A stretch of DNA of 64,000 nt from Escherichia phage Antha. Positions 39,932 through 41,199 of the stretch are shown here, one piece after another (position 1 is the stretch's first letter; each line of letters starts with the position of its first letter). The notes beneath the pieces were generated by a model, which made no database searches, was not told the origin of the DNA, and worked only from the letters and a program-made list of their open reading frames with translations. The stretch lies in sequence record PP925826.1; one strand, written 5' to 3'. The translations under genes were made by a program, and so were the position numbers.

Positions 39932-40183
39932 GTGGCAGGGTATCATTTGAAGGAGATTAGCAAAGAGGAATATGGTTCTGTTGCTAAGATTCAAGAAGAG
40001 CTTTATGAACTTCAAGATGCTATTGATCAAGATTGCAAGCTGATGCAACTTATTGAGTTATCAGATATTGTAGGCGCTGTTGAAGGTGTTCTTGAACAGC
40101 ATTTTCCTGGTATGACGCTTCAAGATTTGATCACTATGTCAAACATTACTAAACGTGCATTCCGCAATGGAGGTCGATCATGA
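39932..40183 (+). CDS. MazG-like nucleotide pyrophosphohydrolase (small all-alpha)
   Basis: GTG start with AGGGGG RBS; EE..EL..AI...ELSDIVGAVEGVL pattern. Confidence 0.45.
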   Translation: MAGYHLKEISKEEYGSVAKIQEELYELQDAIDQDCKLMQLIELSDIVGAVEGVLEQHFPGMTLQDLITMSNITKRAFRNGGRS

Positions 40184-40752
40184 ATGTTGCAGTAATAGCT
40201 CAAGCTATTGATTACTATGGTCGGTTTGCACAAATGTTGGAAGTTCCATATCTCGTGGATGCTGATATACTGGCGTACACACTACCAGAAAATAAAGAGG
40301 ATCGCCCATTAGGGCATCCTAACGGTAAATACTATGTAGCTAGTGCAGAACAATCTTTCCTGCAAATGGAGAAGGATGGTTTTGAATTTGCAGTAGGTAA
40401 TCCGTATATGGCACTAACACCATGTTACCGCACAGAAGAAAATTTAGATGATACCCATTTTAATATTTTCTTGAAATTGGAGTTGATTGAGTTCTACCCT
40501 GATGCTACAATTGAAGAGTATGCTAACTCTATGCGCTGTTTCTTCTCTACTTATTATGGAGTTAAAACATATTTAGTACCCACTAATATTGGGGTTGACG
40601 TAGAGGATGAATATGGTTTAGAATTAGGTTCATTCGGTATGAGGGAGTCTCCAAAAGGTCATCCTTATATCTATGCAACAGGTATTGCGGAACCTAGGGC
40701 TTCACTGGCAATAAACCGTGTTGTAAATAAGATTCAAAGCATTAGCAAATAA
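40180..40752 (+). CDS. class II aminoacyl-tRNA synthetase-like minimal catalytic core
   Basis: motif-2-like CYRTEEN..THFNIFLKLELIEF and motif-3-like GLELGSFGMRE. Confidence 0.4.
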   Translation: MNVAVIAQAIDYYGRFAQMLEVPYLVDADILAYTLPENKEDRPLGHPNGKYYVASAEQSFLQMEKDGFEFAVGNPYMALTPCYRTEENLDDTHFNIFLKLELIEFYPDATIEEYANSMRCFFSTYYGVKTYLVPTNIGVDVEDEYGLELGSFGMRESPKGHPYIYATGIAEPRASLAINRVVNKIQSISK

Positions 40753-40764
40753 GAGGAGAATAGA

Positions 40765-41199
40765 ATGTCTATTGTGACACAAATGAAAGCAGATCGTATC
40801 TTAGCACGTACAACCGATAAGGGTGCTTTTGCTTTGTTAACTAATATTATTGGTGAGTTTGACCTTGCTCGTACTCAAAAGGCAAATCTGAATAAATCAG
40901 AAGACGATATTATGATTAACATTGTTAAGATTGGTATTGCACACGCTAAAGAGGAACTAGACTCGCTTAAGAAAGTTAATGCCTCCATTAGCAAGTGTGA
41001 GCGAGCTATGCGTGATATCACCACTCTGGAAAAATATTTGCCAGAAATGCTATCTGAAGATGATCTTCGAGCTATTGCTGAAGAATTTGCCTTGACAGGC
41101 AAGAAAATGCCAGATATGATGAAACACCTTAAAGCAGAGTATCCGAATCAATATGATGGAAAACTTGCTTCTACCATTGCAAAAGAAATTTTAAACTAA
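40765..41199 (+). CDS. GatB/YqeY-like domain protein
   Basis: C-terminal LPEMLSEDDLRAIAEEFALTGKKMPDMMKHLKAEY resembles YqeY. Confidence 0.5.
   Translation: MSIVTQMKADRILARTTDKGAFALLTNIIGEFDLARTQKANLNKSEDDIMINIVKIGIAHAKEELDSLKKVNASISKCERAMRDITTLEKYLPEMLSEDDLRAIAEEFALTGKKMPDMMKHLKAEYPNQYDGKLASTIAKEILN

Follow-up and report, generated by a model that had tools for sequence, protein, structure and literature searches.

The 64,000-nucleotide stretch of DNA considered here (the window) comes from Escherichia phage Antha (record PP925826.1) and is 99.4% identical to Escherichia phage VivaForever and 98.6% identical to phi92, both of which belong to Justusliebigvirus (Stephanstirmvirinae). An initial sequence-only reading had singled out positions 39932-41199, which are occupied by exactly three co-directional open reading frames (ORFs) on the + strand, and the peptides that it quoted are found there. 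The first ORF (39932..40183, +; phi92 gp197; phrog_6408) encodes an 83-amino-acid (aa) homologue of the all-α MazG/HisE-like nucleoside triphosphate (NTP) pyrophosphohydrolases, which is a conserved partner of the protein encoded next to it. This second protein (40180..40752, +; phi92 gp196; phrog_4806) is a 190-aa minimal catalytic core of the class II aminoacyl-tRNA synthetase (aaRS) type, closest to seryl-tRNA synthetase (SerRS). The third ORF (40765..41199, +; phi92 gp195; phrog_1460) encodes a 144-aa protein with a YqeY/GatB tail domain (Pfam PF09424).

The first of these genes begins with a GTG codon preceded by a GGGGG ribosome-binding site. At its junction with the 190-aa gene (40169..40183, +), a GGAGG ribosome-binding site (40169-40173) lies within the 3′ end of the upstream gene, and the stop and start codons overlap as ATGA (40180-40183); the two genes are therefore considered to be translationally coupled. 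The 144-aa gene has its own ribosome-binding site (GAGGAG, 40753-40758) and starts 12 nt past the stop codon of the 190-aa gene.

All three genes already carry public annotation under conflicting names. The 190-aa protein is listed as "putative seryl-tRNA synthetase," "histidyl tRNA synthetase" or "hypothetical," the 144-aa protein as "YqeY-like" or "tRNA amidotransferase," and the 83-aa protein as "MazG-type fold," "phosphoribosyl-ATP pyrophosphatase" or "hypothetical." No description of the mini-synthetase family or of its pairing with a MazG-like protein was found in the literature searched, the family is not mentioned in a survey of jumbo phages (PMC7824862), and none of the curated Pfam or NCBIfam models covers the 190-aa or the 83-aa protein. 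What is new here is the recognition of a class II aaRS paralogue of unprecedented size, together with its partner.

A minimal class II synthetase-type core

Pfam scanning of the 190-aa protein returned no synthetase family above threshold, the best match being tRNA-synt_2d (E = 0.2), and NCBIfam scanning returned no matches at all. A profile built from 41 family sequences matched SerRS in the PDB (E = 9e-5), with HisRS not among its matches. The AlphaFold2 model, predicted with high confidence (pLDDT 95, pTM 0.89), contains the antiparallel β-sheet catalytic fold of the class II aaRS superfamily, and Foldseek comparison with viral models retrieved uncharacterized members of the same family first and a giant-virus SerRS next. 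The sequence-only reading had proposed a minimal class II core too small for a normal synthetase and had named fold prediction as a check; structure prediction and structural search both recovered the class II architecture and, together with the homology, bear that proposal out.

The assignment to SerRS was examined with specificity controls, in which the 190-aa family was compared by hhalign, under identical settings, with six E. coli proteins. SerRS was matched with a probability of 89% (E = 2e-6), followed by AspRS (30%, E = 6e-4), PheS (10%, E = 3e-3), HisRS (1.4% over 20 columns, E = 0.036), ThrRS (1.2%, E = 0.043) and AsnA (0.3%, E = 0.21). SerRS also ranks above paralogues of the AsnA, EpmA and carrier-ligase type in both sequence and structure comparisons, and by these measures is the nearest relative of the 190-aa protein. 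Because hhalign favors SerRS far above HisRS, the "histidyl" label is unsupported and an identity with HisRS or HisZ was ruled out. The public names would fit a non-catalytic regulatory pair, with a HisZ-like and a HisE-like member, but this is highly improbable, as HisZ has lost its catalytic residues, those of the 190-aa family are 98–100% conserved, and no histidine-biosynthesis (HisG-type) family is among the matches listed for the flanking genes scanned.

All three class II motifs can be recognized. The segment CYRTEEN...FLKLE had been correctly identified as motif 2, but GLELGSFGMRE, initially taken for motif 3, is the strand preceding it, where the Mg-binding Glu is expected; the true motif 3 is Y165-A-T-G-I-A-E-P-R173, in a register backed by both hidden Markov model (HMM) and pairwise alignment. 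Motif 1, which in class II aaRSs is a helix-strand element with an invariant Pro at the dimer interface, corresponds to G[FY]xxxxVPYLVD and aligns with GYSENYVPYLVN of E. coli SerRS (EcSerRS), its proline, P23, being conserved at 95%. Among 275 family sequences, to which the following conservation values also refer, the hallmark residues of motifs 2 and 3 are nearly invariant (R84, 100%; E/D86, 93%; F97, 100%; R173, 99%).

In EcSerRS, the seryl moiety is contacted by T237, E239, R268, E291, and S391, the adenine stacks on F287, and motif 3 ends at R397 (10.1101/586255). Mapping by hhalign and HMM places the five seryl contacts at S55, E57, R84, E101, and T167 of the 190-aa protein, F287 at F97, R397 at R173, and the Mg-binding Glu, taken as E355, at E148. 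Each of these eight positions is 99–100% conserved, as are C82, K99, D140, G150, S151, and P172, while Q58 is conserved at 98%, and the two replacements in the serine site (T237 by S55 and S391 by T167) are conservative. Sequence alignment was also tried as a means of fixing the SerRS equivalent of E148 but is ambiguous between E344 and E355, and was not decisive. Because the catalytic residues are conserved throughout the family, the pattern is apparently that of a working adenylate-forming enzyme rather than a degenerate regulatory paralogue, and the description of the 190-aa protein as a SerRS-derived minimal adenylation core with a predicted intact active site can be regarded as solid.

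By contrast with the active site, the parts by which SerRS recognizes tRNA have been lost. The alignment begins at residue ~172-186 of the 430 residues of EcSerRS, so that the 190-aa protein lacks the coiled-coil tRNA arm together with ~65 residues at the start of the catalytic domain, and the AlphaFold2 model likewise has no N-terminal coiled-coil arm, the element that binds the variable arm of tRNASer. SerRS deprived of this arm is crippled in tRNA charging but keeps serine activation. The long basic motif 2 loop with which SerRS touches the acceptor stem is 8 residues shorter in the 190-aa protein and acidic (ENLDDT vs AGSYGRDTRGLIRM), and no conserved basic residues are found outside the active site in the family alignment. 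Overall charge and isoelectric point were considered as discriminators of tRNA binding and proved uninformative, EcSerRS being just as acidic.

The 190-aa protein thus differs from SerRS in size (190 vs 430 aa), in the trimming of the hairpin before motif 3 and of the C-terminal tail, in its Mg strand (ELGSxGxR, nearer to AsnA and class IIb enzymes than the EISSCSN of SerRS), in falling below the threshold of every Pfam and NCBIfam synthetase model, and in having a MazG-like partner. It is also set apart from the known truncated paralogues (AsnA, EpmA/GenX, ligases of the Bll0957 type, and HisZ), which are cellular proteins of 275-340 aa whose partners or acceptors are known (ammonia, EF-P, a carrier protein, and HisG), whereas members of the present family measure ~175-200 aa, occur only in viruses, lie nearer to SerRS and are accompanied by an NTP-pyrophosphatase-type protein. 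Closest in concept are the aaRS urzymes, designed class II cores of HisRS and GlyRS of ~80-140 aa that activate amino acids and acylate tRNA (PMC11602164). The 190-aa protein shares with these the character of a minimal class II catalytic core; unlike these laboratory excerpts, or the one odd database sequence among them, it belongs to a large natural family of ~1,600 clusters under strong purifying selection, in which the three motifs and the whole central sheet are retained.

Pairing with a MazG-like protein in large phages

An exhaustive profile search recovered 1,598 clusters of the 190-aa family at 50% identity, 1,067 of them with E-values below 1e-30, and nearly all members are 175-200 aa long. 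Scanning of IMG/VR with the family profile yielded 80 loci, on contigs of up to 578 kb, that belong to a wide variety of large and jumbo phages, and the pair of 83-aa and 190-aa genes is also present in a Bacillus jumbo phage and in Citromicrobium phage RXM, a siphovirus of 104 kb. A cellular homologue in an informative operon was sought in ~186,000 species genomes, and these gave just 15 loci, all of them in metagenome bins or phage-like fragments; the mini-synthetase family is effectively virus-specific.

The 83-aa MazG-like protein accompanies the core across this range. An HMM of the 83-aa family matches 77 of the 80 viral loci, where the gene usually lies directly beside the aaRS-like one and on the same strand, whichever of the two comes first, and the 4-nt overlap seen in Antha recurs in 20 related loci. 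In the genome-bin loci, the two genes are adjacent or fused in 13 of 15, and among cultured phages the core and the MazG-like protein have near-identical distributions (272 and 263 records, respectively) with matching genus counts. Five IMG/VR loci encode both domains in a single ORF, and nine of 194 family representatives are fusions of 260-274 aa, in which the core always comes first and the MazG-like domain second. Altogether, 14 fusion proteins fall into five sequence clusters, four of which have a split gene as their closest relative, indicating that fusion arose independently at least four times. The correlation of evolutionary distances between core and partner is weak (Spearman 0.2-0.3) and was not used as evidence. 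Functional coupling of the core with the MazG-like protein is solidly supported, and the coupling is probably physical. In the sequence-only reading the MazG-like gene appeared only in the heading, as a neighbor, which it is; the pairing and the repeated fusion now identify it as a genuine conserved partner.

Structural searching with the 83-aa protein returned E. coli MazG as the top match, with HisE and PRA-PH also among the top matches. The family carries the metal-ligand signature of these enzymes, EExxE(..D) followed by ExxD: E22, E23, and E26 are found in 80 of 81 sequences, as is D/E29, and E42 and D45 are found in all 81. In its signature and its size, which is near that of the archaeal MazG 1vmg and of HisE, the protein resembles the MazG/HisE group, and a helical fold of the same kind is probable. 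It differs from that group in remaining below the Pfam thresholds for PF01503 and PF03819 (PRA-PH, 15.2 bits vs a cut-off of 21.3), although weak matches to PRA-PH and MazG are obtained for 10 and three of 15 family members, respectively, and in having invariant N-terminal (G-Y-H..I..K) and C-terminal (T..AF..G.R) segments of its own. Its designation as an NTP-pyrophosphatase-type partner with predicted intact metal ligands is considered solid, and to our knowledge no other member of the MazG family is partnered with an aaRS-like protein.

The composition of the 83-aa protein also bears on whether it could be the acceptor of an activated amino acid. EpmA/GenX aminoacylates EF-P, and the 190-aa core could by analogy be a protein- or carrier-directed ligase, similar to EpmA/GenX or to the SerRS-like amino acid:carrier-protein ligases, acting on the 83-aa protein or on a host protein. 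This is quite improbable. The candidate attachment residue, S44, was examined and rejected, as it varies across the 81 sequences (58 with S, 20 with A, and three with C), no PP-binding Pfam match was found in the 83-aa protein or its family members, the residues that are conserved form the acidic metal-binding set typical of NTP pyrophosphatases, and SerRS outranks the relevant ligases as a relative of the core.

Larger versions of the partner occur as well. In four huge phages (L041, 5070-6017; L053, 5175-6002; L054, 6567-7436; L056, 4953-5858), the MazG-like domain follows an N-terminal phrog_4784 domain of ~190-230 aa, which has cupin-like H-D-H ... F-H-x-T motifs and a faint likeness to a phrog named "cysteine dioxygenase" and may represent a third enzyme attached to the module; the extra domains of the longer MazG-like proteins have no Pfam match. 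Phage RXM (L108, 1784-3154) encodes a second MazG of ordinary size (190 aa) directly upstream of the 231-aa MazG-like protein of the module, and the partner in the module is therefore not simply a general house-cleaning MazG.

The 144-aa YqeY-like protein has a different standing. Its likeness to YqeY/GatB, noted from the outset, passes the Pfam gathering threshold (PF09424, 30.3 bits vs a cut-off of 27; E = 5e-7; 106 residues covered). Its value as an informative neighbor did not hold up: HMM and phmmer searches found YqeY beside the pair in only two of the 80 viral loci (L009 and L010) and in none of the 15 genome-bin loci, phAPEC8, of a sister genus, has the pair with no adjacent YqeY, and the distribution of YqeY in cultured phages differs (151 records, dominated by Vibrio phages). 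YqeY was accordingly ruled out as a conserved partner; the domain passes Pfam but is stand-alone here, and its link to the module is confined to the phi92 genus. It is thus a lineage-specific neighbor outside the conserved module, possibly with an accessory role. One distant 125-kb phage contig (L006, 3743-6688) encodes YqeY, a calcineurin-like phosphoesterase, the MazG-like and aaRS-like proteins, a Macro domain protein and an R2K ATP-grasp ligase, a neighborhood with a flavor of translation, ADP-ribose metabolism and RNA repair.

No third universally linked gene emerged from clustering of all neighboring ORFs, and PADLOC found no match to a known defense or anti-defense family. A Pfam census of 150 flanking genes gave scattered matches to RNR, ThyA, RNA ligases, RlaP, an exoribonuclease and phosphatases of the DSP type. 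In Antha, the nucleotide-metabolism neighbors are NrdA, NrdD and NrdG, and in phage RXM the context comprises a deoxynucleoside monophosphate kinase, ThyX, the second MazG, and RNR.

Proposed chemistry and its acceptor

We tentatively favor, with somewhat less than even confidence, a virus-specific two-enzyme unit in which the core makes seryl-AMP and transfers the seryl group to something other than tRNA, probably a nucleotide. The 83-aa and 190-aa proteins would form a complex in Antha, equivalent to the single fused polypeptide of some phages. The SerRS-derived core, reduced to its bare active-site sheet, would take up L-serine, or a very close analogue, together with ATP-Mg and convert them into enzyme-bound seryl-AMP and pyrophosphate, after which the seryl group would be handed to this acceptor. 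The MazG-like subunit might either make the acceptor, at the level of a nucleoside monophosphate (NMP), from an NTP or trim an aminoacylated NTP to the NMP, and the product would be an amino acid-nucleotide conjugate serving large phages during infection. What the analysis shows directly is the fold, the relationship to SerRS, the conserved catalytic residues of both proteins, the strict pairing and repeated fusion of their genes, and the confinement to viruses; adenylate formation, the serine substrate, the physical complex, the kind of acceptor used, and the biological role are inferred.

Several lines of reasoning converge on this proposal. A non-tRNA acceptor is favored because all tRNA-recognition elements have been lost, and because the known truncated class II paralogues (AsnA, EpmA/GenX, the amino acid:carrier-protein ligases, HisZ and BirA/LplA) use non-tRNA acceptors or none. 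It is also favored, with a nucleotide as the probable acceptor, because the partner is an enzyme that acts on nucleotides and because genes that fuse repeatedly usually encode subunits or consecutive steps. The nucleotide-metabolism genes near the module, in Antha and in other phages, agree with this. A precedent further favoring a nucleotide is found in phages with Z genomes, where the MazG-like enzyme MazZ supplies dGMP to PurZ, which ligates an amino acid to the nucleotide. The sequence-only reading had proposed an aminoacyl-adenylate or tRNA-directed module of unknown purpose; the adenylate-forming site, apparently intact, is borne out, and the emphasis moves from a tRNA-directed module to joint aminoacyl-adenylate and nucleotide chemistry because the MazG-like gene is the conserved partner. 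Involvement of tRNA is possible but the less likely reading.

A number of observations weigh against the seryl-nucleotide proposal, some of which concern the active site itself. Placement of E148 at E355 derives from the strand order of the model and a low-probability alignment with AsnA (ELGSFGMR vs ELSSMGIR). Of the five serine contacts, R84, E57, and E101 are common to class II enzymes in general, and specificity for serine is for this reason only moderately supported. We also know of no DNA or nucleotide modification that is shared by the phage lineages carrying the pair. The remaining counter-observations connect the module with tRNA. Among 60 loci scanned, 16 have tRNA genes within 6 kb of the module; in six loci the module sits inside an array of eight or more tRNAs, and seven loci have a tRNA gene no more than ~700 bp from the pair. 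RlaP is encoded in 11 of the 80 viral loci, and also in L003, and RNA ligases are among the flanking genes. The YqeY domain, which aids tRNA binding in GatB and in Deinococcus GlnRS, adjoins the module in the phi92 genus and is two genes away in L006. RlaP repairs RNA 3′ ends and restores the chargeability of tRNA (PMC12776372), and class II cores smaller than the 190-aa protein, whether engineered or natural, acylate tRNA in vitro (PMC11602164).

These same observations, along with the fact that the nearest relative of the core is a true tRNA synthetase and the presence of a class I aaRS 2.4 kb from the module in L005, would be accounted for by a mini aaRS or tRNA 3′-end enzyme assembled in trans. 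In such an arrangement, the core would serylate the CCA end of tRNASer, of phage tRNAs or of damaged and repaired tRNAs, and RNA binding would be supplied in trans, the role falling to YqeY in phi92 and to some other factor in other phages. The substrate of the MazG-like protein would be this tRNA end too, or else a nucleotide related to it; it might, for instance, take off a pyrophosphate that blocks the end or degrade an alarmone, such that translation is maintained against host stress responses or tRNA-targeting defenses. We consider this somewhat less likely than the seryl-nucleotide proposal, of which it is the main rival. It has to contend with a core that has no tRNA-recognition element, with the absence of YqeY at most family loci and with the mischarging of tRNAs that unspecific serylation would cause, and it leaves the strict pairing and the fusions unexplained; we know of no aaRS that needs an NTP pyrophosphatase. 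The independent support from tRNA arrays is, moreover, thinner than the counts imply, because several of the loci concerned belong to related phages.

The combination of an intact ATP site with the absence of an acceptor-binding domain also invites comparison with the synthesis of diadenosine tetraphosphate (Ap4A)-type compounds, a known side reaction of aaRSs. The core and its partner could be a synthase-hydrolase pair, the former making such compounds and the latter hydrolyzing these or (p)ppGpp, and thereby tune host stress signaling. E. coli MazG, the top structural match of the 83-aa protein, has been reported to be active on ppGpp, and synthase/hydrolase fusions exist for other signals, as in RelA/SpoT. 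SerRS takes Ap4A as a substrate in a published kinetic assay (10.1101/586255). Chemistry involving ATP only would not, however, need an amino acid pocket that is 98–100% conserved, and no obvious gain accrues to a phage from making and destroying one compound, which leaves this explanation improbable.

Returning to the two chemistries that retain an amino acid, it is possible, although we put it forward with reserve, that many large-phage lineages share a so far unrecognized system in which the smallest natural class II core is joined to a MazG-like enzyme for undescribed chemistry, whether formation of a seryl-nucleotide conjugate or repair and charging of tRNA 3′ ends against stress or defense. 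If active, the pair would contain the smallest natural class II synthetase-type catalyst known and would be the first case of a class II core wedded to a nucleotide pyrophosphatase. It would bear on the minimum protein needed for amino acid activation, the question at issue in the urzyme debate, would extend the aaRS paralogues that have non-translational roles by a new branch, and would define a widespread auxiliary function in large and jumbo phages, so far obscured by three conflicting names in the databases. Mis-annotation at this locus at present affects hundreds of phage genomes, the names "histidyl tRNA synthetase" and "tRNA amidotransferase" being unsupported and the MazG-like partner mostly listed as "hypothetical."

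Neighboring genes and related records

The trio is preceded in Antha by an intein-containing UvrD-type helicase (37108-39921, +) and followed by a gene for a 316-aa protein (41217-42167, +) and then by those for NrdD and NrdG. The first strong terminator-like hairpin downstream (42215..42237, +) has a 9-bp stem with five GC pairs followed by a T-run and was located by consensus scan only; its position suggests, without being proof, that the helicase, MazG-like, aaRS-like, YqeY, and 316-aa genes make up one transcription unit. The window has a negative GC skew from ~2 kb to 32 kb and a positive one from ~32 kb on (computed over 1-64000), consistent with a switch in the dominant direction of transcription near 32 kb.

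In the helicase, Pfam Intein_splicing and Hint matches extend over residues ~254-600, between the N- and C-terminal helicase domains. Phage JLBYU50 has an orthologue of 579 aa that lacks the intein, and the phi92 annotation speaks of "2 discontinuous domains." The 316-aa protein is named "ribonucleotide reductase" in PHROGs and RefSeq (phrog_15930), a name that has no Pfam or NCBIfam support and looks like an over-annotation owed to its position beside nrdD; its counterpart in phAPEC8 has 462 aa, and the two are clearly alike only in the N-terminal ~30 and C-terminal ~100 residues. The nrdD gene itself (42257-44056, +) is a single uninterrupted ORF of 599 aa in the window. In phi92 (L001, 6758-8836), it is annotated as two pieces and a "spliced variant," and an intervening sequence is therefore taken to be present in phi92 and absent from the window.

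No tRNA genes were found within the window. Elsewhere, L065 has a phage-encoded transfer-messenger RNA (4111-4503) 1.2 kb upstream of the module, L060 has a tRNA with a CUA (amber-reading) anticodon (10956-11030), labeled "Pyl" by ARAGORN, and L053 has a tRNA for which an odd two-base anticodon is called (411-486). Finally, five unannotated records named "Campylobacter phage" (MG065639, MG065645, MG065656, MG065689, and MG065650) are, across this region, 98.5% identical to phi92-like phages of E. coli, and their host labels look doubtful.

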